The notes beneath the pieces are model-generated. The model had not been told where the DNA came from, ran no database searches, and saw only the letters and a list, made by a program, of their open reading frames with translations. 33,461 nt of DNA from Trichodelitschia bisporula. Taxonomy: Eukaryota. The translations under genes and the position numbers were made by a program. Within the stretch, counting starts at the first letter, position 1, and every line of letters starts with the position of its first letter. Location: assembly GCA_010356995.1 (NCBI GenBank), contig ML996689.1, positions 355,873 to 389,333 of the forward strand, in the 5' to 3' direction. Below, piece after piece: positions 944-29,258 of the stretch.

Positions 944-3147
944 ACTCGAGGGCGGGGGTGCAAAAGGCGGTGGTCGAATCGGATCAATCTCCAAAGGGGT
1001 AACGTCGCTAAATGACGTTGCTCAAGCACAGTCGAGGATTTTTCTATTCCAAGGTTGCAGAGGCGCAAAGGTCGGCCGAACTGCGAATGCGGTGGTATGC
1101 GGGAAGGGGGACGGGTGTTTGGGGTGGGGGGTTGGTTGGCCGGAAGGCGAGTAGCTGGCAGCACTTCAACCCAGCGACATGAAAACGATCGACGATCAAA
1201 AACAGCCACCTTTCTGGGGGAGGTAAATGTATGGTTAACTATGCTCGTACAGAGACAGTGGAGAAGAGACTCGAAGGAGCCGAATTAGTGATGGGGCTTC
1301 AAGAAGCGTGGATGGTGTTGTTACACAGCACGCTAACGGAGCATAAACCCATGCAACTTGTGCATTGCGCCAAGCCAGGCCTCCCTCGACCTTCCCCAGT
1401 GCAAAAAGTCCAAACAAACCCCAGCCGAGCGGGGGCACGGCTTTTTCCCCAACGGTCGGAGTTTGGCGCCGACACATGTACAAAGCCGGTTTGGGAGGTT
1501 ATGTCCATGAATTTCTTTGGTTTACTAATAGCGCCCTGCCTTGTTGTGCGAGTGTCCAGAAGCGCCAGAGAATGGCGTTGGTCGGGATGGCCGCTGCGGC
1601 TGCGGCTACGGCGCTGGCAGCAACACTGGCTGCAGCAAGCACGCAGCAGTGACGTCGCACAAAACTACGCCAGAAGCCAGACATTGGACGGACTGGCGCG
1701 GAGTGATTGAGAGGCGGGGGGATAAACGAAAAAATGGATGATCTGGAGGATAGATTGGGCGGTGAACTGAAGCTACGGTACTTGTCACTAATGGGGAACG
1801 AGATCAGATGGGATCTAAGCACGCGAAGATGAAGGCAAGGAGACTCGTCTATATCAAAAAAGCCATGTCGTCCAGCCTTCAGATCCCGTGATTTCTAGTT
1901 TCGACCACACTTCGTCAATGCTCAACCTTAACCGCAACTTCAACTTCTACCTCCCTCTCTTCCCTCTCCTTAAGGCATACTATAGTACACAATAGAGCTT
2001 TACCATTCTATCGGTCCCATCCACTCTCTCATTCCCATCTTCACTTTACCGTATTACCTATTTCGCTTCTCTCCCACTCTTCTACCCCCTCCCTCACTAC
2101 CACGCTTGCCACCAACCCTACCCAATCCCGCCTTGTCGGGAGTTATGATTGCTTTGCTGCACTCTGCCGTGTTCCATTCTCACAACGAACCTGACCACTG
2201 CGGCAAAATAGTACCACATGCCCGTCTTTTCCTGCTGCAGGGCAAAGTTCATAGCAAAAGCGCGTGGGATCCACTCTACCCCTCTACCCCTCTACCCCGC
2301 CTACTACAGTACCAGCACTATTCACTACCACCAGTGCGGCAAGAGTACTACATACCGTCGTCTCCCCTCCTTTACCCCCCGAAATACCCGACTGCAGCTG
2401 CACATGGGAAGGCCTGTGAGACCCATCTTCCGTCCTTTCCGCCTTCCGCTCGAATCACCGTGAGGCTGCCTGCACGCTGCAGAACATGCTGGGCGGCCAC
2501 AGATGTTGCCGTCGGCAGCATTGAGGTCGAACTCCCCGGCAACCACAACACCCTCCCAAACCATGACAGCCAGCTAACTAACCCATGTCTCTTTTATCTT
2601 GCTCTTCCTCATTGGACAACATGCTAACCTGACCCCCCTCCAAAACTTCAAGCACCCGTAGTCTACACCGACCTGCCTTTCGCAACATATGCATTCATAT
2701 GTTTTTTCTCCTCCTTGGCTTTTGCCTTGTTTCGAATCCCTAGAACTAGCTGCTACTTGATAGCCAAGTCTGTGTGTACGGAATGCTGCCATCTTCCGGT
2801 TACCGGCTGCAGGCCTAGCCCTTTACCTTGCAGTTCGGAGGGAGTACGGCGCCGGTAACGCGAGCTGTGGGCTGAGAACCTCCCCTCCTGCCTTGCGTTC
2901 GTGTCCACCGGTTGCTTGTGCGCGCGGCATACTGCGAGGCCCGCCACCCCGTGAACCGGTTGAATTATTGCCCCTGCGAGGCATACCCCTGTCCCACATC
3001 CGCCGGTGCTTCGCCCACTTTATTTAAGCCTCGTCTTAATTCGAGCCTGCTCTCTGATCAATAGCGAGCCCGTTACTGTATCAGGTTTCTTTGTCTTTGC
3101 CGTTGACCGAATATTTTGACAAGCGTTTATGTTCAGTTAAACCCATC

Positions 3148-4912
3148 ATGGAGACCACCTTCATCACCATACATGGTAGTTCCACTCGCCTCAACCCTCC
3201 ACCTCGCTGACCCCCCAGCGCAGACCTGACCAACGATGCCCGCATTCTGTACTCATCCGACTCCATCGTCGACATTCTCGGCCACACGCCTGATGAGGTC
3301 GTCGGGAAGTCATGCTGGGAGTTCTTCCATCCCTCTGAAATTCCCCTCGCAAAGCAAATGCACCGCCGTGATGTGAACCTCGACAAGGCCGCAGTGCTCG
3401 CCTACTGTCAGCTCAAGAACCGTAATGGCGAGTGGGTCGGCTGTGAGTGCTGCTTCAGCGTCGTTTACGATGTCATGGTCGTTTGTACCAGTATCTATCG
3501 AAGCGCCAATGACAGCTCCAGTATGACCGTCGAAAGGGTTTTTTTCTCGCTAATTAGGTGTAGAACGTGCCGATGAAGCCTACCCTGTACGCCGGCGCTT
3601 CTCGTCGTCTCCGCAAGACCCGCGCTACCATATGCTTACGCATCTCTCGTCCAAATTCAAGCAAGACGTGGCGACTCAGACTCACGAACCCCGCGCTGCT
3701 CTCTTTCTCAACCGTTTCACTCGCACCCTGACCATCATGTACGCCACATCCGGAGTCCAAGAGATCATCGGTATCTCTGGCGCTGAGATGAAAGGCCGCA
3801 GCTTCTACTACTGCATTGCCGAGGATTGTCTTGAAGACGCAGTCCGTTGCTTGGAATCGGCAAAGGGCAATGACTCCATCGCTTACTTACGCTTCTGGTT
3901 CCGCGACCCACGGTTTGAAGATCGCACTCGCGAGAATGAAGAAAACCGCATGAGAGACGATGAGGACGAAGACATGACCGAAGTCGATACTGACACCAGC
4001 ATGACCGACGTCACCAGCTCCGAAGACGAGGACGATCAAGGCGGCGTATCCGTCCACTCCCCGAGTCGCTCTCGCTCGCAGGGTTACGTCCGTCCAAGCA
4101 TCAGCACGGCGGACAGCGGTACAAGTTCATCCTCCAATTTCACCGGCACGACCTCCGGTCAGCCAAACACGCCCTCTGTCGCGCCCTCGCCTGTGCCAAC
4201 TGCCTCCACATCCTCCAGCGTCGATCCACATGCCGGATACATTGAGCTCGAAGCCGTCGTGTCCTGCACCTCCGACGGCCTCGTGGTCTGCCTGCGTCGA
4301 GCACGCCCGCTCCTGCCACAGACTGCCCAGGAACCGCCGTCCCAGACCACTCGTGCCACCCAACAGTTCCCAACACCCACACCGACCATGCCCCCACCCA
4401 CCCGCGGCATTTTTGCCGCTCCCTGGGCCATAGAACCAACATACTACCCCGCACCGCCAGCCCCGCCAACCAGCTACTTCCCCGGCATGCCGACCAGCTA
4501 CGCACCACCGAACTTCGGGGCACAATTCACGAGCGCCGGGTGGAACATGCAGAGCCTGTTCCCGGCGCCGCTACAACAGGCAGCCTCGAAGGGCGGGCCC
4601 GAACCGGTTGATTTCATGAAGAGTATTCGTGAGGTTGGTGTGTTTGCTTGGGGGTTGACGGGGATCAACGGTGCGTTGGCGGACTATTCGCGCGGGAAAC
4701 CGAAGGGTGAAAGCATTCCGTCCGGCGGGTTGCCTTTCTGGGATCCGACGTACCGGGAGCCGGCGAAGCCGTTTGTAGCGAGTCCGGGGCGGTTGCCGAG
4801 TGTTAGTCCTGTTGGGTCGGGGAGTTCAGGATTAGGGACTGCGGGGGCGGGATACAGTCCCAGTCGGGGAGAGTATAAACCGAGGGATATATTCGGTGAT
4901 CCTGGGCTCTGA
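3148..4912 (+). CDS. Fungal PAS-domain protein (two PAS-like folds, acidic and Ser/Pro-rich regions)
   Basis: ATG at 3148 (METTFITIH), intron, DLTNDARILYSSDSIVDILGHTPDEVVGKSCWEFFHP (PAS signature), second intron near 3521-3563, then ORF 3632-4912 with a second PAS-like segment (TIMYATSGVQEIIG...GRSFYYCI). Confidence 0.85.
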
Positions 4913-5733: not shown

Positions 5734-5822
5734 TGCCCCCTGACAGAGTTGAACTATCGACCTCGGCATTGCCTGCTGGAACAGGTACTAGTGCCGCGCT
5801 CTACCAACTGAGCTAAAGGGGC
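5734..5822 (-). tRNA. tRNA-Thr(AGT) with a 16-nt intron
   Basis: Minus strand folds as a cloverleaf: GCCCCTT/AGGGGGC acceptor, GCTC-AGTTGGTA-GAGC D arm, CGGCA-CT-AGT-A[intron]A-TGCCG anticodon arm, GATAG-TTCAACT-CTGTC T arm. A T6 Pol III terminator follows near 5722-5727. Confidence 0.95.
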
Positions 5823-5863: not shown

Positions 5864-6070
5864 CTACAACTCATCATGGGACGAGGACGGGCTGGGAGTG
5901 GGAGTGGTCGAGATGGTGGCGGTGAGGTCTTTGAGGTTGGGAGCGAACCTAAGCCATGAATGGGATGGAGATGAAGGGGCGCATACAGTGGTGGTCAAGG
6001 TGACTGTCTTGGCGGTTAATACGGCCATCAGCATTGCAATGGCGATGGTGGAAAGGCAGAGGAGTGCCAT
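5864..6070 (-). CDS. Small signal-peptide protein, array copy 1 (68 aa, ends in HDEL)
   Basis: MALLCLSTIAIAMLMAVLTA hydrophobic leader, Thr/Ser/Pro-rich body, HDEL then stop. Preceded by the same TATA and TGACTCA block as the other copies. Confidence 0.6.
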   Translation of the reverse strand: MALLCLSTIAIAMLMAVLTAKTVTLTTTVCAPSSPSHSWLRFAPNLKDLTATISTTPTPSPSSSHDEL

Positions 6071-6194
6071 GACGACGGGTTGAGAGGGCTGAAGGGTTGA
6101 GTGCTGGGTTTGGGGTGTAAATGCGGAGTGGATTTGGAGGATGGGTTGAAGACTGGCGGGTTGTACTGGAGATGGGTGGGAGCTGCGGAGTCCC

Positions 6195-6215
6195 TTTATA
6201 CCCGCGTTTGAGTCA
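6195..6215 (-). promoter_or_regulatory. TATA box plus TGACTCA (Gcn4/CpcA/AP-1-type) element, repeated upstream of array copies
   Basis: Plus-strand tttata...tgagtca at 6195-6215 and 7229-7250. One-mismatch versions at 6762-6782 (taagtca) and 7698-7720 (cgagtca). TATA only at 8219-8225. Confidence 0.55.
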
Positions 6216-6340
6216 CAGGGACGAGTATTCACATGGTTGACTTGCTGAAGGTGAACCTGAGCATTCATTCTTATTTGAGGTGAACTATTTACCCCGGCAC
6301 GGCCCACAGGCAGGTCCTCGTGCCGTGTTAATGAGCTGAT

Positions 6341-6682
6341 CTAAAGGCCGAAGAGATGGGATCCCCAGTTCTCGGGATCGTTTGATCCTGATATGTCGCA
6401 TTCCTCAACATCAATCCAAGTCCACGAGCCCTCGGGAGCATCGTCTGACTCTATGGGCGTAGTCATGGATGACTGGGGCCTGGGAGGGAGTTTGGGGCGG
6501 GGAAGCATCTCGGGGCTGGGAGGAATTTCAGGGCTGGGGGGGATCTCTGGGCTGAGAGGAATTTCGGAGCTAGGAGGGATCTCGGAGGTTGCGGTGGACA
6601 GTGTAACAGTGGCGATGGCTGCAGTCGCCATCACCACTCCAGCCAGGAATGCGAAGATTGGGGAAAGGGCGAGGCGGTTCAT
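6341..6682 (-). CDS. Small secreted protein, array copy 2 (113 aa)
   Basis: CACAATG start, hydrophobic leader, (S/P)EIPPS hexapeptide repeats, C-terminal EECDISGSNDPENWGSHLFGL related to copies 4 and 5. Confidence 0.75.
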   Translation of the reverse strand: MNRLALSPIFAFLAGVVMATAAIATVTLSTATSEIPPSSEIPLSPEIPPSPEIPPSPEMLPRPKLPPRPQSSMTTPIESDDAPEGSWTWIDVEECDISGSNDPENWGSHLFGL

Positions 6683-6896
6683 TGTGACGGGTGAAGTGCG
6701 TGAGGATGATGGTGTGGATGTGGGAAGTGCAGATGGTCAATTATGGAGCAGCAGAGGCCGGCTTATAGCCTCTGCTAAGTCACAGGGTCGAGTTTTCACA
6801 GAGTCGTGATCGACGACGTGCTTGAGCTTCATTCCCAGAGCAAGTGAGCTATCAACCTCGGCCCGGGTTTCTAGGACTGGTACTCGTGCCGTGTTA

Positions 6897-7150
6897 AGGA
6901 GCTGGTAAATCCCGAAGAGACGGGATTCAGTTGTCCGGTCTATTTACTTCTGGAATGTTGTTTTCCTTCTCAGCACCTACGGTACACAGCTCTTGGATGA
7001 ATCGTCGGGTTCCATGGACGTAGTCATGGAGGTCTCGGGGCTGGGAGCATTCTCGGAGTCTGCAGTAGAGGGTGCGGTAGTGGCGATGAGTGCATACGCC
7101 ATCGCTGCTATGGCGAGGAAGGTGTAGATTGGGCAATCGAGGCTGCTCAT
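6897..7150 (-). pseudogene. Array copy 3, probably disrupted (57-aa ORF 7150-6977; C-terminal motif out of frame)
   Basis: The signal-peptide ORF stops at SKSCVP. Downstream DNA gacaacTGAatcccgtctcttcggg aligns with copy 2 gagaacTGGggatcccatctcttcggc, showing a Trp-to-stop change plus an indel. Confidence 0.6.
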
Positions 7151-7374
7151 TGTGACGGATGCCGAGCGCAAGGATGATGGTGCGGATGAGTGTCCTTGCA
7201 GTCGGATTCTGACAGAAAACGGAGACGGTTTTATAGCCCCAGCTGAGTCACAGGGGCCAAGTGTTCACGGACTTGTCGTTGGCGGTGAATTTGCGCTTTC
7301 ATTCTTACATCTAGTGAGCTATCGACTTCAGCATGGCCCATTAGAGCAGATACTCGTACCGACTTGATGAGCAG

Positions 7375-7635
7375 CTAACGTCCAAAGGCGTGCAAGAGAC
7401 GTGAGACCCAGTTGGCCGGTTTTTTCGCTCCCGATATGACGCATCCCTCCTCGGCGATCAAAGTACATGAGCTCTGTAAGGGATCGTTCGGATCTGTGGG
7501 CATAGTTGCAGTTGGGGGGGGGCTGCGAGCGATCTCGGTGACCAAGGTGGATGGTGTGGGAGTGGGGACGAGTGCGTCTGCCGTCCCAACTGCAAAGAGG
7601 AATGCGAAAACTGTGGAAAGAAAGAAGTGCTTCAT
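7375..7635 (-). CDS. Small secreted protein, array copy 4 (86 aa)
   Basis: CACAATG start; MKHFFLSTVFAFLFAVGTADA leader; Pro/Thr linker; SCTLIAEEGCVISGAKKPANWVSRLLHAFGR then stop. Confidence 0.8.
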   Translation of the reverse strand: MKHFFLSTVFAFLFAVGTADALVPTPTPSTLVTEIARSPPPTATMPTDPNDPLQSSCTLIAEEGCVISGAKKPANWVSRLLHAFGR

Positions 7636-7840
7636 TGTGATGGTGGAGTTTGGTACGAACACTAGATGGGGTTAATGCGGAGAGCTGCGGAGGCCGTCTT
7701 ATAGCCTCGTTGTCGAGTCACGGAGCCGAAAATTCACATAATCCTGCTGAAGATGAGCCCGGACGCTCATTAATTATCGCAAGTGAACTATCCACCTCAG
7801 TATGACCCTCCATGACAAGTTCCCGTGCCGCGTCCCTGAG

Positions 7841-8156
7841 CTAACGCCCGAAGGGGTTCAAGAGATGTGACGCCCAGTTGGCTCGTTTATTGGCTCCGGA
7901 CTTGACGATGCAGTAATGACTCACGACACACGAATGTCCGTGGCGCTGCTCGAGGGCGCGCTGATTGAGGGCACGCTGCCATGAGACTGCCCCGCTCCTT
8001 AGACATAGTTGCGGATGGTCTGTACTTGCGAGAGATCCGAGAGACTGAGATGGAGGATGTGGGAGTGGGGATGGGTGCGTTCGTCGTCCCGAGGGCGTTC
8101 GACATCGCAAGTGCGATGAGGAAGGCGAAGACTGTGGAAAGGAAGAAGGGCTTCAT
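7841..8156 (-). pseudogene. Array copy 5, frameshifted
   Basis: The MKPFFLSTVFAFLIALA leader is in one frame and the conserved tail SCVVSHYCIVKSGANKRANWASHLLNPFGR in another. The span is 316 nt (3n+1) and I found no frame-restoring intron. Confidence 0.65.
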
Positions 8157-8472
8157 CGTGACGGGAGGTAGAGGTTGGTGATGGCGGTAGAAGGAGATGT
8201 GGGGAACAGCGGAACTCCTTTTATAGCCACTGCTATAGTGATGGGAATGGTTCACTTTACCTGGTGAAGGGGCCAATCACGGCGGACGCACTGGGTGGTT
8301 TCGCACCCCCCTTCGCGGTCGGATAGTCGAACTCCAGAATCGCGAAGAGGGATTCGGCAGTAGTCGGCATGGCAGCTCGGATGAGCCGTATTTGCACCCA
8401 GCACTGTGGCGGCCCGACGGGGAACGTCCATTGCTCAAAAGCGTCAACTTATCAGATTCGGCCCACTCTCGC

Positions 8473-10043
8473 TTACTGAAAGCTCTGCTTCAAAATGCCC
8501 GGCATCCGCTTCTCCAGATCCAGAATCATTTGGCCAAACAGGCCATTCGCCCACGAAAACCTAGATGATCAGCTTCAGCCCGCCCACTCCGGGAATGCAC
8601 TCACCACTGCCTCGTCCAATGCCCCGCATTGAAGCTATCCACACTCTCATGAATAAGCCCCAGCCCATCCGTACTCGCCACAATCTCCTTCAACACCGCC
8701 CTCACCTCATCCTCCTCATCACTCGTGAGTATGCGCACAATACTCGCCATCGGCCACGCCAGACCCGGGCCATTATGCGGGCCCCCAACCGCATTGATAA
8801 CCGGCCCACGCATGAAATACGGATTCCCAGCGCCGAGAATCATCTTCCGCGTATTCTGATAAACCACATCCGACCGTTCCACGAAGCCCATCATCGGCGC
8901 GGCAAGCAGGCTTGGAATATTCGCATCGTCCATGATATTCACGCCGCCAAACCCATCCACCTCATACGCATAAATCTTCCCAAAGCGCTTATCCTCCACG
9001 ACGCCCGCCTTGAGCACCGCCGCCCGCACACTCGCCGCAAAACTCTTCATCTCCGAGCTCAGCCCCCCTTCCCTAATCTTATCCGCGATGTCCGCCGCCG
9101 CCGCCAAGTACCGCGCAAACATCATATTCGCTGGTATGAAGAGCTGATAAATCGCCGCATCGTCACTCGGCCGGAATGCGCTCCGGACCAATCCAGTCCC
9201 CGCCGCAACCGGATTCCCCACCCCATCATTCGCCAGCGTCTCCGTCGCGCGCGTCGTGCTCCGCATCCAGGTATACGGGCTCGGCAGGACCTTGCCGTCG
9301 GGCGCATACGTACCATTCGTCATCGCGTACGCCGTATCCAGTACTGCCCTCACGGCACGCTTCCAGCCATACTTCCCAAAAAACGCCGCATCCCCAGTGG
9401 CGCTGTAGTATTCTGCACTAATCTGCAGAAACGCCGCCAGGCTATCCAGCTCGTACTTGCACTCAAACACCACAGTCGGATCATACGGCGGGAACACGGT
9501 GTCTCCGTTCGCGCCGCCATTACCCGCCAGCGGCAACCCGGCCTCGACGGGCGGTTGGAACGAGTTGCAAAACGGACTCGCGGCGATATACCGCGCTTGG
9601 AGGTTGATCACACCCCTCACAAGCCCGGCGAGCGGGTCGTCGCTACCGTTCACAAGCCCCATGTAAGACTGCATCTGGTTCGCGCTGTCGCGCAGCCACA
9701 TCGCGTTGATATCCCCCGTGATCACAAAAGTGAGTTCCTCGTCCGACCCCTTCGCGGTGCCGCGCCAGCGAATGGCCGTGTCGAGGGTATTCGGGAAGGC
9801 ATTTTCAAAGAGGCGGGCTAGGTCTGGGTCGCTGATTGTGTTGCGCAGCCGGGTAATCGTCTGCTCCACGGTTGGGGACGTGAAGGTCCGGCAGGACTCA
9901 GTCGGCCGTTGAAAGGCGAGTTGGTACCGCCCAGAGGACACCGGCGAGTGGTTTGCCGTCGCGTACTGCGCGTAGTCCGGACACTGGGCAGCCACGGCAG
10001 CCGCGCTGGCGAGCGCAAAAGTGCAAATCCACGTTGGGGCCAT
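8473..10043 (-). CDS. Secreted glycoside hydrolase family 125 (exo-alpha-1,6-mannosidase / Mug157-like)
   Basis: Signal peptide; motifs [63 protein letters not shown]. Intron 8604-8561 yields the C-terminus [16 protein letters not shown]...SFQ. Confidence 0.93.
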
Positions 10044-23728: not shown

Positions 23729-23978
23729 NNNNNNNNNNNNNNNNNNNNNNNNNNNNNNNNNNNNNNNNNNNNNNNNNNNNNNNNNNNNNNNNNNNNNNNN
23801 NNNNNNNNNNNNNNNNNNNNNNNNNNNNNNNNNNNNNNNNNNNNNNNNNNNNNNNNNNNNNNNNNNNNNNNNNNNNNNNNNNNNNNNNNNNNNNNNNNNN
23901 NNNNNNNNNNNNNNNNNNNNNNNNNNNNNNNNNNNNNNNNNNNNNNNNNNNNNNNNNNNNNNNNNNNNNNNNNNNNNN
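23729..23978. other. Assembly gap (250 N)
   Basis: Run of n flanked by G-rich sequence. Confidence 0.99.
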
Positions 23979-25748: not shown

Positions 25749-28700
25749 ATGTTCGAAAGACCTTTCAACGCAGGCTTGATAGTAGGCCTGACAGCACTGT
25801 GGGCGGTGAGTGTCGCTGGACAATCTGACTCCTACGTCTTCGGGATTGCTTCCAATGACGGACAACACTCCGGTTACATCGGCCAAACTGCCGGTGGACA
25901 GCTTTGTTTCGGTCAAGCTTTTCCCACGAAGCAGTTTACAGTGGACGTCGCCGCTGCGAGATTTGTTGATGACCAGGGCCGCGGCTGCGGCGTAGCTCTC
26001 GAGACCCATCAGGTGCAGTGTGACGCCGCCGTTAACTGTAAGTTCAACCGCATCTCTTTGTTTGAATCGGTTTAACACACTAAACGTATAGGCAATTCCC
26101 TCCTCGGTCTAGTCAACGCGGTCCAAAGCGCGGGTCAGCAGAATGCCGCCAGGGACAACGTATGGATTTGCCCTGCCAACGCCCAAGACGAGTGGAACGT
26201 CTACACATCCCCCATCGAAAACCAAAACTGCATCGGAGCAGTCCTTTCCGCCACCGCTCTCTCCGCAAACCAGCAAGCGGCGTCTGCGCCTGCTCAGGCA
26301 TCTGAATGGGCACTCGCTCCGCCAGCGGAGGCTGCACCCGCCATTCCCAATGCCGACGCCCCTCACTCGGTACCCCCATGGATCGCAGATCAGAACGCGG
26401 CAACTGCGGCTCCCGTTCCTGTCGTCGCTGAAGCTCCCGTCGCGGAGCCCGACATTACGCCTGCTGCTGTCCTTGCAGCTCCCGTGGTGGTCGCGGTCGG
26501 TGAAGATGGTGCATTGGTCACGATTGCGGCGCCCAAGGCTGCTGAGGTGGTTGCTCCTGTCGTGGCTCCTACTGCCGCTCCCGAGGTTGCCGAAGTTGCT
26601 CCGGCTTATACTGCGGCTGCCAGCTATGGCTCTGCTGCTGTCGAAGCCCCGGTTGCTCCTGCTTATACTGCGGCTGCCGGCTATGGGGCTGCGGCTGCGC
26701 CTCCTGCCGCTCCCGTTGTTGAAGCTCCAGTTGCTGCACCGGTTGTCGAGGCTCCCGTTGTTGCACCGGTTGTCGAGGCTCCCGTTGTTGCACCGGTTGT
26801 CGAGGCTCCGGTTGCTGCACCTGTTGTCGAGGCTCCGGTTTACAAACCTCTTGTTGAAGCTCCTGTTGCTGCACCTGTTGTCGAAGCCCCAGTTGCCGCC
26901 CCCGTTGTCGAAGCTCCGGTTTACGAACCTGTTGTCGAGGCTCCAGCTGCCGCCCCCGTTGTCGAAGTCCCAGTTGTCGCGCCAGTGGCTGAAGCTCCAG
27001 TCGCTGCCCCCGTCGTCGAAGCCCCAGTCGCTGCACCCGCTGTTGAAGTTCCCGTTGTCGCGCCAGCGGTTGGAGCGGTACCTGCTCCCGCAGCCGAGGA
27101 AGCCCCGGCAGCCAAGGAAAATCATGCTGCCCCCCCTGCCTGGGCCAACCACCACGGCCACGGCCCTCCTCCATTCACCGCCAAGGTCTGGAAAGCCATC
27201 CGCGGCGGCAAGAAGCCGGAGGAAATCCTTGAGCAGGCTGGGATCGAGCCGGCCGCTGAGGCTGCCGTCACGGCTCCGAAAGCACCGGTTCTCGTCCCAA
27301 AGACCCCCGTCGAGGTTCCAGTTGCCCCCGAGGTTGCAGTCGCTCCCGAAGCCCCAGAGGTTCCCGAAGAAGAAGTCGCCGTTTCTGAAGAGTATACGGC
27401 CGCCGCTGGTGGCGAGCACCCTCATGGTCCTCCTCCCGGCGCCGACAAGGGGCCTCCTGAGTGGGTTGGCAATCTGTTCAAGGCCGTCCAGGAGGGCAAA
27501 GAACCGGCTGAGATTCTGGAGGCTGCTGGCATTCAACTGCCGCCGGTAGATGCTGGACCCGAGGCCGTTCCCGAAGTAGAGGTCGTGGCTCCCGAGGCAG
27601 AGGTCGTTGTCCCCGAAGAAGAAGTTGTTGCTCCCGAAGCAGAGGTCGCCATTCCTGAGGAGTATGCGACAGGCGCTGGTGGTGAGCACCCTCAAGGTCC
27701 TCCTCCGGGCGCGGACAAGGGGCCTCCTGAGTGGGTTGCCAATCTGTTCAAGGCCGTCCAGGAGGGCAAAGAACCGGCTGAGATTCTCGAGGCTGCTGGG
27801 ATCAAGCTGCCACCTGCTGCTCCAGCCGAGGGTGGCGCGGAGGAACTGGGCCAGCAACATGCCCCGCCGCCTTGGGTGCTGGCTCAGCAGGGTGCCGATG
27901 GTGGACAGCAGGGCGCACAGGAAGGTGGATATTCTGGTGGATATGCTGGTGGCAAGCCTGAGGGTGTTGCCGTGCCTGTTGCTCCGGCTGCCCCAGAAGC
28001 TGCCGCTGCTCCTTTAGTTGCTCTGGTTCCGGCCGCACCGGCCAAAGATGCTGCTTATGCTGACAAGGTTGACGGTTACGGACAAGGCCAGCAACGGGGC
28101 GGGCATGAACAGGGTGGAGCCGAAGCTCCCGAATTCAAGGGCGAGGATTCATGGGCAGGTCAGGAGGCGTGGGGCGATGGTTCCGCGGTTAATGGCCCTC
28201 CGGCATGGGTTGTCGAGTATTTCAAGAACATGCATAACGGCGGTGGTGAACAGGGGCGGGAGGGTGGATTTGATGCTTGGGGACATGGGGGCGGTGAGCA
28301 GGGTGGGGAGGAAGGTGGCTATGGTGGTGACGATTGGGGGATGGTGGCTGGTGGTGAGGAGGAGGGTGGTGCGCCTGGTGGCTGGGGCGCGTTTGGTGGG
28401 AATCAGGAAGGGGGTGGTCATGAAGGCGGCTTCGGAGGCAATCAAGAAGCCGGCGGTCATGAGGACGGCTTTGGAGGCAACCAAGAAGCCGGCGGTTATG
28501 GAGGCGGTCACGGACAGCGACCCAGCAAGCCTGAAGGGGAGTTTTCGGAAAGCGCTCAAGGCGAAAATCACCAGGAGGGCGATAAGAACCTGGAGGGCGG
28601 AAACAACCATGAGGGCGGACACGGACAAGACGGCGGACACGGGCAAAACGGCGGAAACAGTCAAGACGGCGGGAACGGTCAAGAACACGGCAACGGGCAA

Positions 28701-29258
28701 GAGCACGGGAACGGTCAAGAAGGTGGAAACAACCAGGAAGGCGGCGGCCACGGGGGCGGTCACGGACAGCCCCCCAGCCAACCCGAGGGCGGCTCCGCCG
28801 AAGGGAAATCGGAAGACGGCAGCTCCTCGGAGGGTGGTTATGGCGGTCCGCCATCGGGCGGCGACCAAGGGGCCGAAGAAAGCAACGCCGACCAGGACGC
28901 AGAAGCCAGCAAAGACTTTGAGGCCGGAGCCCAGAACGAAATCGCCAAAGGCAAAGCCGAGCACGGCAAAGCCCACCGCGCCGCCCCGATTCTGCCCTGC
29001 GACACCCACGTTGTGGAGTCCGTCGCAGCTGGGAATGCCGCGGGAGCTGCGCACATCGTTCGTGTGAATCGCCGTGATGAACAGCCTCATCACCCGTCCT
29101 TGGAGGATAAGGTCAAGGTCAAGGAGGCGGAGTGGCTGCCGGATGATAACTTGGTTGAGGGTGCTGAACATGGGTATACGGCGTGGATTGACCATATTTA
29201 TGGTCATGATGGGAGTGTTCCCACGCCTTACTGGGGGGAGTATGAGGAGAGTGGTTAG
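25749..29258 (+). CDS. Large secreted repeat-rich cell-wall protein (about 1151 aa) with an N-terminal Cys-containing Pir-like domain
   Basis: Signal peptide; IGQTAGGQ...DDQGRGC...QVQCD. Intron 26038-26091 links in frame to WICPA...WNVYTSP...CIGAVLSA and to ORF 26484-29258. APVVEAPVA and Gly/Gln/Glu/His repeats follow. Confidence 0.85.
26705..27065 (+). repeat. 27-bp coding tandem repeat (APVVEAPVA, about 13 units)
   Basis: gcaccggttgtcgaggctcccgttgtt-like units. Confidence 0.9.

Follow-up and report, generated by a model that had tools for sequence, protein, structure and literature searches.

A 33,461-nucleotide (nt) stretch of Trichodelitschia bisporula DNA (here the window, which lies on contig C3 of the 25.8-Mb, 44-contig assembly that was searched) contains an array of five small genes built on a tRNA gene. 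Each repeat unit (470 to 565 bp) consists of a TATA promoter, a small leader-bearing open reading frame (ORF), and nt 1 to 57 of an intron-containing tRNA-Thr(AGT). The intact tRNA terminates the last unit, and the other four units terminate in dead copies that are cut in the T-loop. It is almost certain that a segment running from about position 8308 to the T-loop of this tRNA was duplicated head to tail at the DNA level, with the breakpoint inside the tRNA. As for the ORFs, the evidence tips slightly toward a lineage-specific family of small secreted proteins in birth-and-death evolution, the intact copies of which would be selected secreted peptides. The overlap with tRNA sequence is the array's particular feature; the rest resembles an orphan small-secreted-protein array gained beside a tRNA. 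The host, a dung saprobe, belongs to the Dothideomycetes (Phaeotrichales).

Origin of the repeat units at a tRNA gene

The copies were numbered 1 to 5 by ascending plus-strand coordinates, and all array features are on the minus strand. The ATGs of copies 5, 4, 3, 2, and 1 are located at positions 8156, 7635, 7150, 6682, and 6070. The resulting spacings of 521, 485, 468, and 612 bp bear out an earlier description of the locus (the sequence-only reading) as five head-to-tail minus-strand units about 470 to 610 bp apart. That description overlooked the intact tRNA-Thr(AGT) at positions 5734 to 5822 and its four degenerate copies, one at the end of each other unit. The repeat unit extends from about position 8308 to tRNA nt 57 to 60. 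When 325 non-redundant tiles of the window were scored against the tRNA, the tRNA itself scored 178 and the four unit ends scored 79, 70, 69, and 63, with a background of at most 56 (median, 39). A candidate sixth remnant upstream of unit 5 was rejected, as 878 of 2,000 shuffles reached its score.

The four remnants retain the tRNA intron and the locus-specific 5' flank and were therefore copied as DNA. All four show the T33-to-G change, the loss of A58, a shortened D-loop, and an exit from tRNA sequence in the T-loop; a single dead copy was therefore ancestral to all of them. Each departs from the live tRNA at 5 or 6 of 30 exon positions and carries few indels, and in three of them C to T was the commonest change (11 of 39). 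None was called by ARAGORN or Rfam, none folded better than shuffled sequences (z, -1.1 to +0.8), and the features of a functional tRNA (a cloverleaf with U33, a T-loop, and a 3' acceptor strand) are missing from all four. The live tRNA stayed with the rightmost unit, as read along the minus strand, because only that unit is followed by the tRNA 3' end. The genome carries six copies of tRNA-Thr(AGT), the one in the array and five further ones.

The topology ((2,3),(4,5)) was favored by 10 to 13 log-likelihood units, and in the whole-unit tree, copy 1 grouped with copies 2 and 3 (support, 88) on a long branch. The pairing of neighboring copies fits tandem duplication followed by unequal exchange. 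In the history that we consider almost certain, the truncated tRNA copy died, and later unequal exchanges spread it to four units. The array had been described earlier as an expanding family. Tandem expansion is supported by the tree, but three of the five copies lack a frame with leader plus tail, so that there is as much decay as growth. In the five-copy alignment, the longest stretch without variation among 410 gap-free columns is TATAA, and the ATG also does not vary across the five copies. Between copy 1 and the other copies, it is the promoter module that has been preserved best (0.75).

A B-box-like 10-mer (about 8323 to 8335, minus strand) shares 8 of 10 positions with the T-loop region of the tRNA. 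It is located some 20 nt outside the unit's left end, near position 8330, and may have provided the microhomology for the first duplication. Among 36 tRNA loci inspected with 1.5-kb flanks (30 of the 63 listed and the six Thr loci), the array locus has a clear degenerate neighbor on the same strand, another shows a near-identical copy in inverted orientation, and a third is borderline. In the inverted case (L024, G000:C3:88437-91508), two near-identical tRNA genes face opposite ways and are separated by about 80 bp. The borderline case (L017, G000:C7:951530-954601) is a same-strand tRNA-like match about 1.3 kb from the tRNA gene (score, 52; null maximum, 48).

Reading frames, tail, and absence of relatives

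The hydrophobic leader that had been noted earlier was found in all five copies. Its best 11-residue Kyte-Doolittle mean was 2.38 to 2.66, a level reached by 4.3% of the 575 ATG-started open stretches in the window. The evidence for a putative signal peptide is this hydrophobic core in five of five copies and a predicted helix from residue 3 to 22 in copy 4, and it comes from hydropathy and modeling. The AlphaFold model of copy 4, of low confidence (mean pLDDT, 56), has helices at residues 3 to 22 and 76 to 84. A variable linker follows the leader, as described before, with Ser, Thr, and Pro making up 34 to 53% of the middle region. Linker expansions of 18 nt in copy 2 and 15 nt in copy 5 preserve the frame.

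All three tail sequences quoted in the sequence-only reading, including NWGSHLFGL, were found as given. The tail had been taken as the protein end in copies 2, 4, and 5, with a remnant in copy 3. This is the case for copies 2 and 4, but in copy 5 the ATG frame stops at 7887 and the tail lies in the +1 frame; in the tail remnant of copy 3, a stop replaces Trp. Leader and tail therefore share a single frame in two of five copies. The intact short ORFs are those of copies 2 (113 amino acids [aa]) and 4 (86 aa), and the frames of copies 1, 3, and 5 are shorter or shifted. Among four sequencing runs, no indel relative to the window was found in copies 2 to 5; therefore, as far as the contigs tell, the frame breaks are not assembly errors. 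An intron rejoining the copy 5 leader to its tail was considered and dropped, as none was present in the RNA contigs. For copies 3 and 5, we infer pseudogenes or truncated variants. Models are on record in the public annotation for copies 3 (57 aa), 4 (86 aa), and 5 (89 aa); the exact sequences of copy 2 and unspliced copy 1 are absent from public protein records.

The last 10 or so codons of the tail overlie the tRNA 5' flank and acceptor stem, with the stop on or beside tRNA nt 8 to 10 (the A-box TAG). In copy 5, the A-S-H codons match the tRNA 5' flank, the N-P-F codons lie over tRNA nt 1 to 7, and the tail stop (7841 to 7843) together with five bases is identical to tRNA nt 8 to 15. In copies 2 and 4, the stop is within 3 to 5 nt of the copy 5 stop position on the tRNA. 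Copy 1, which adjoins the live tRNA, terminates before it in both its unspliced and its spliced form. For the tail's first half, from Cys to NW, no counterpart could be detected in copy 1. Alignment of the 3' part of copy 1 is confined to the last 30 nt or so, and this short alignment led us to abandon the idea of full collinearity between copy 1 and the tail.

Judged from the sequences, with only copy 1 for comparison, the tail may have been gained by copies 2 to 5 from the dead tRNA or lost in copy 1, both directions being compatible. No outgroup was found. One model, which we regard as rather unlikely, is that a small gene lost its stop, extended over the 5' flank and acceptor stem of the dead tRNA, and took the A-box TAG as its new stop, and that the resulting amphipathic C-terminal helix was kept by selection and amplified fourfold. 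That copy 1 stops before the live tRNA is what this model would lead one to expect. The exapted peptide would possibly be amidated at the C terminus in the copies ending in Gly-Arg.

The short amphipathic helix proposed earlier for the tail is apparent in copies 4 and 5, whose hydrophobic moment was reached by about 0.1% of 5,000 shuffles, but not in copy 2 (22%). Cationic antimicrobial peptides combine an amphipathic helix with a net positive charge; the last 12 residues of the copy 4 and 5 tails contain one or two Arg. Copy 4 has a C-x7-C motif, the copy 5 tail has C-x5-C, and copy 2 has one Cys. The unspliced frame of copy 1 combines a hydrophobic leader with an exact HDEL-stop end (5864 to 5878, minus strand). 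HDEL is the fungal endoplasmic reticulum (ER) retention signal. This end may have arisen by chance; if it is real, copy 1 would be an ER-resident variant.

The family had been proposed to be unrecognised and lineage specific, and this was sustained: no relative outside this T. bisporula locus appeared in protein, profile, structure, or metagenome searches. Pfam gave no match at cutoff for six array frames. A protein search with copy 4 returned only itself (1 of 3 candidates), and a profile of six sequences returned only the locus's own three models among 1,974 candidates. The same profile had four matches among 1.84 billion representatives, three of them self and one a 960-aa tandem-repeat protein that was rejected as a repeat artifact. 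The best feature score in the ESM Atlas was 0.76 (PatX), under the bar, with nothing usable for the tail; the PDB gave 0 matches, and 0 of 595 pattern matches in metagenomes were confirmed. Searches of the genome by DNA, protein, and promoter pattern, whose reach for very diverged copies is limited, found no copy beyond the array locus. Synteny was examined at subsets of 80 loci of GH125, the family of the gene upstream of the array. No tRNA was found at the 20 loci given to ARAGORN, and no match to the neighbors, the array proteins, or the tRNA was found at the 23 loci most like the fungal gene. In the literature, covered mostly through titles and listings and with few subscription papers, we found no description of an ORF array ending on dead tRNA copies or of this locus in the species.

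Transcription, selection, and rival explanations

Two runs from one sample, X3 and X4, were taken as RNA, a label that their records do not carry, because the GH125 intron is absent from their contigs. Of the five copies, 1, 3, 4, and 5 have RNA contigs over them, as has part of copy 2, and the depth of the copy 1 contigs was about 6 to 21. The uncovered part of copy 2 was given no weight as evidence. Two GT-AG joints on the minus strand (at 5929 to 5986 and 7744 to 7795) show that the array is transcribed in the sense direction. The donor of the second intron is a non-consensus GTGGAT inside the dead tRNA copy of unit 5. The spliced frame of copy 1 encodes 56 aa and ends in C-x6-C. The 58-nt intron of copy 1 overlies sequence that appears exonic in copies 2 to 5, which either intronisation or loss of splicing would account for. 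Once spliced, the copy 1 frame is similar to the Pro-rich linker of copy 2. Of the transcripts on which the sequence-only reading had staked its proposal, what is seen is low-level spliced sense RNA that is in part read-through and spans the TATA boxes.

Selection was assessed by likelihood tests, and simple NG86 counts (0.56 to 0.85) were set aside as transition biased. The ratio of nonsynonymous to synonymous substitution rates (dN/dS) of the tail was 0.33 to 0.41 for all four tail-bearing copies (p, 0.010 to 0.026) and 0.25 to 0.28 without the broken copy 3 (p, 0.002 to 0.006), on 22 codons from three or four sequences in a hand-set codon alignment, the region having been picked after the fact. 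When every 22-codon window was scanned, the observed tail value was reached in 15 of 400 neutral simulations (corrected p, about 0.04). The other two sense frames gave no signal of low dN/dS in the tail. As expected, the antisense frame that shares third positions mirrored the tail signal, and it is not independent of it. The dN/dS of the linker was 1.1 to 1.5. With substitutions alone, a neutral copy keeps its ATG, open frame, and stop with a probability of 0.06 to 0.21; two of the four tail-bearing copies have kept them. The tail had been proposed as the active part. It is the only segment with a signal of amino acid constraint, but its similarity is partly inherited from the tRNA and its flank.

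If the intact copies are selected secreted peptides, copies 2 and 4 would be driven by TATA promoters of their own in a condition other than the one sampled, possibly amino acid starvation acting through the TGACTCA element. The N-terminal helix would take their products into the secretory pathway, with the Ser/Thr/Pro linker serving as a disposable, fast-evolving spacer. The working part would be the last 22 to 30 or so residues (in copy 4, a Cys loop and then a short helix), which would bind a membrane or receptor outside the cell, most likely in microbial competition or signaling.

Several observations weigh against this reading, and many of them favor mostly neutral debris instead, namely, a small gene beside a tRNA that was duplicated at a fragile site, with all copies decaying and copies 2 and 4 not hit yet. 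Tail conservation would then reflect common descent from the tRNA flank and tRNA sequence. Neither the whole ORFs (dN/dS, 0.75 to 0.84) nor the leaders (0.68 to 0.84) differ from 1. Mean identity across the (2,3) by (4,5) split is much the same for the dead tRNA (0.69), leader (0.68), and tail (0.70), so that coding and dead-tRNA parts are equally diverged. Three of five copies are broken or truncated and lack a full frame, and a hydrophobic leader survives neutral drift with a probability of 0.13 to 0.59 per copy. The tail result carries the restrictions given above, and its tRNA-derived half alone reaches only p values of 0.07 to 0.09. The RNA is low level, with an X4 depth of 3.7 to 10 over the array versus 57 for GH125; contigs span the TATA boxes, and one extends from GH125 into copy 4. 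Therefore, much of the array RNA is read-through, for which GH125 is the likely source. In addition, copy 2 encodes a strongly acidic protein, the tail of which is not cationic and does not significantly exceed shuffles in amphipathicity. There is no conserved dibasic site: copy 4 has KK followed by Pro, the copy 5 tail has KR, and copy 2 has none. Given the site preferences of Kex2, release of the tail by Kex2 is doubtful. What neutral decay does not readily account for is the low tail dN/dS that is specific to the sense frame and includes the half without a tRNA counterpart, the invariance of TATAA and ATG in all five copies, and the large linker expansions that keep the frame. We regard neutral debris as a serious possibility, though on the unlikely side.

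Selection on nucleic acid, with promoter modules and remnants acting in cis (as residual TFIIIC sites, insulators, or parts of a long GH125 read-through RNA) and the ORFs riding along, would agree with the good preservation of the promoter module between copy 1 and the others, the few indels in the remnants, and the spliced read-through contig that uses a donor inside a remnant. However, in all four remnants the B box has lost its A58 and the D-loop is damaged, their folding is no better than that of shuffles, and the tail signal tracks the reading frame; we consider a cis role improbable. The unit can also be read as a tRNA head joined to about 400 bp of unrelated body, within the 140- to 493-bp range given for fungal tRNA-related short interspersed nuclear elements (SINEs) in the portion of PMC5063351 available. 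Accumulation of a mobile element at this tRNA, whether SINE-like or tRNA targeting, is nevertheless largely refuted and very improbable. Within their limited reach for very diverged copies, the genome searches by DNA, protein, and promoter pattern gave no dispersed copy, and the other five tRNA-Thr(AGT) loci have no such neighbor. The remnants retain the intron and locus-specific 5' flank and have a broken B box, no tRNA head was detectable upstream of unit 5, and neither an A-rich tail nor a target-site duplication was seen by eye in the alignments. A lineage-specific family with selected intact copies thus remains the reading that we favor, by the narrow measure stated at the outset.

Surrounding genes and comparison with known systems

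The coordinates of the array features and of the upstream gene are collected in Table 1. According to Pfam, the window contains GH125, ferric reductase, fungal transcription factor, MFS, and Arv1 genes. GH125 lies upstream of the array on the same strand. On the other side, an intron-containing gene (about 3100 to 4912, plus strand) is convergent on the array. It has PAS-like stretches by eye and no Pfam match in the frames scanned, and RNA contigs over its 3' end are deeper than those over the array. Farther away, a 924-aa frame (26484 to 29258, plus strand) has APVVE-type repeats, two occurrences of the block PPPGADKGPPEWV, and a Gly-rich C-terminal half; it has no Pfam family at cutoff and is probably a cell-surface protein. 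A 250-base run of N (23729 to 23978) is an assembly gap.

Table 1. Features of the array and the upstream gene, with window positions
Feature	Position	Strand	Remarks
Intact tRNA-Thr(AGT)	5734..5822	-	16-nt intron 5770-5785, anticodon 5787-5789, then T-run; ARAGORN; Rfam RF00005, 54.7 bits
Copy 1 ORF	5864..6070	-	68 aa without splicing; hydrophobic leader and HDEL-stop end; NW tail absent; terminates short of live tRNA
Copy 1 intron, minor splice form	5929..5986	-	58-nt GT-AG; X3 joint, depth 5.5, one contig; X4 contig unspliced
Copy 1 promoter module	6165..6278	-	TGACTCA at 6215, TATAA at 6200
Dead tRNA-Thr copy, end of unit 2	6279..6350	-	nt 1-57, intron kept; score 79, 0/2000 shuffles
Copy 2 ORF	6341..6682	-	Intact, 113 aa, 18-nt in-frame linker repeat expansion, acidic, tail ends FGL-stop
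Copy 2 promoter module	6735..6842	-	TATAA at 6767
Dead tRNA-Thr copy, end of unit 3	6843..6915	-	Score 70, 0/2000 shuffles
Copy 3 ORF	6977..7150	-	Truncated, 57 aa; downstream tail remnant out of frame, contains stop
Copy 3 promoter module	7200..7312	-	TGACTCA at 7250, TATAA at 7235
Dead tRNA-Thr copy, end of unit 4	7313..7391	-	Score 69, 0/2000 shuffles
Copy 4 ORF	7375..7635	-	Intact, 86 aa, leader helix, S/T/P linker, C57-x7-C65, amphipathic tail, FGR-stop
Copy 4 promoter module	7670..7781	-	TATAA at 7703
Intron, donor in unit 5 tRNA remnant, acceptor upstream of copy 4 TATA	7744..7795	-	52-nt GT-AG; X3 only, one contig
Dead tRNA-Thr copy, end of unit 5	7782..7857	-	Score 63, 0/2000 shuffles
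Copy 5	7841..8156	-	Leader frame to 7887 (89 aa); tail with C-x5-C and 15-nt x3 repeat in +1 frame
Copy 5 promoter module and approximate left boundary of repeat unit	8190..8308	-	TATAA at 8225, no TGACTC
GH125 alpha-mannosidase gene	8474..10043	-	Intron 8561-8604; Pfam, 100% identity to T. bisporula protein, splice joint; 3' end by eye

Lineage-specific small secreted proteins of Dothideomycetes are short and leader bearing, have no Pfam domain and no relatives, and occur as tandem copies with pseudogenes. The array matches this class in length, leader, orphan status, and tandem copies with pseudogenes; it differs in having only one or two cysteines in the intact copies and a long Ser/Thr/Pro linker. 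For a dung saprobe, the term effector in the plant-pathogen sense is not applicable. Dikaritin loci have a DUF3328 (UstYa) gene alongside, and no Pfam match to DUF3328 was found in the 22 window frames scanned. Compared with KEPs and dikaritin precursors, as far as they are described in the accessible text of PMC9769878, the array has a leader-bearing precursor and, in two copies, a short candidate peptide near a dibasic site. Unlike KEPs in that text, it has one tail per gene, no repeated cores flanked by KEX2 sites, and an unconserved dibasic site. AfuSINE2, in the part of PMC5063351 already referred to, likewise joins a tRNA-related part to an unrelated part over a similar length. The array differs from it in being a single tandem locus that retains the intron and genomic flank, with a broken B box and with a TATA promoter and ORF inside.

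De novo protein C termini arise by loss of stop codons, in cases that are recent and polymorphic, according to the sections of Andreatta et al. 2015 (PMC4494051) that could be consulted. The array is possibly similar in that downstream non-coding sequence becomes a C terminus. Unlike in the cases covered there, the sequence in T. bisporula is a tRNA flank plus acceptor stem and is common to four paralogues, and the change may have run either way. Two mentions of tRNA found in that paper bear on other subjects. If the tail is selected, the tRNA gene has been both the breakpoint that amplified its neighbor gene and the raw material for that gene's C terminus, and the live tRNA alongside is a fixed record of the ancestral sequence, so that the event would be unusually easy to date and test. 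If the exaptation model is true, a bioactive fungal peptide is partly derived from a tRNA gene. If the copies are neutral debris, the locus is an ordinary decaying array. The "conserved motifs" of tandem orphan genes can be inherited non-coding landmarks.

Another parallel comes from yeast. In Saccharomyces, 33 of 96 sites of gene gain lie next to tRNA genes, and tRNA genes have been linked to segmental duplication endpoints in earlier work cited by the same authors (Gordon et al. 2009, PMC2675101, in its available part). Like the Saccharomyces orphan arrays reported in that part, the T. bisporula array is a small orphan family adjoining a tRNA gene. It is unlike the Saccharomyces cases presented there in that the breakpoint lies inside the tRNA, a dead tRNA copy is carried by units 2 to 5, and the ORFs end on it.

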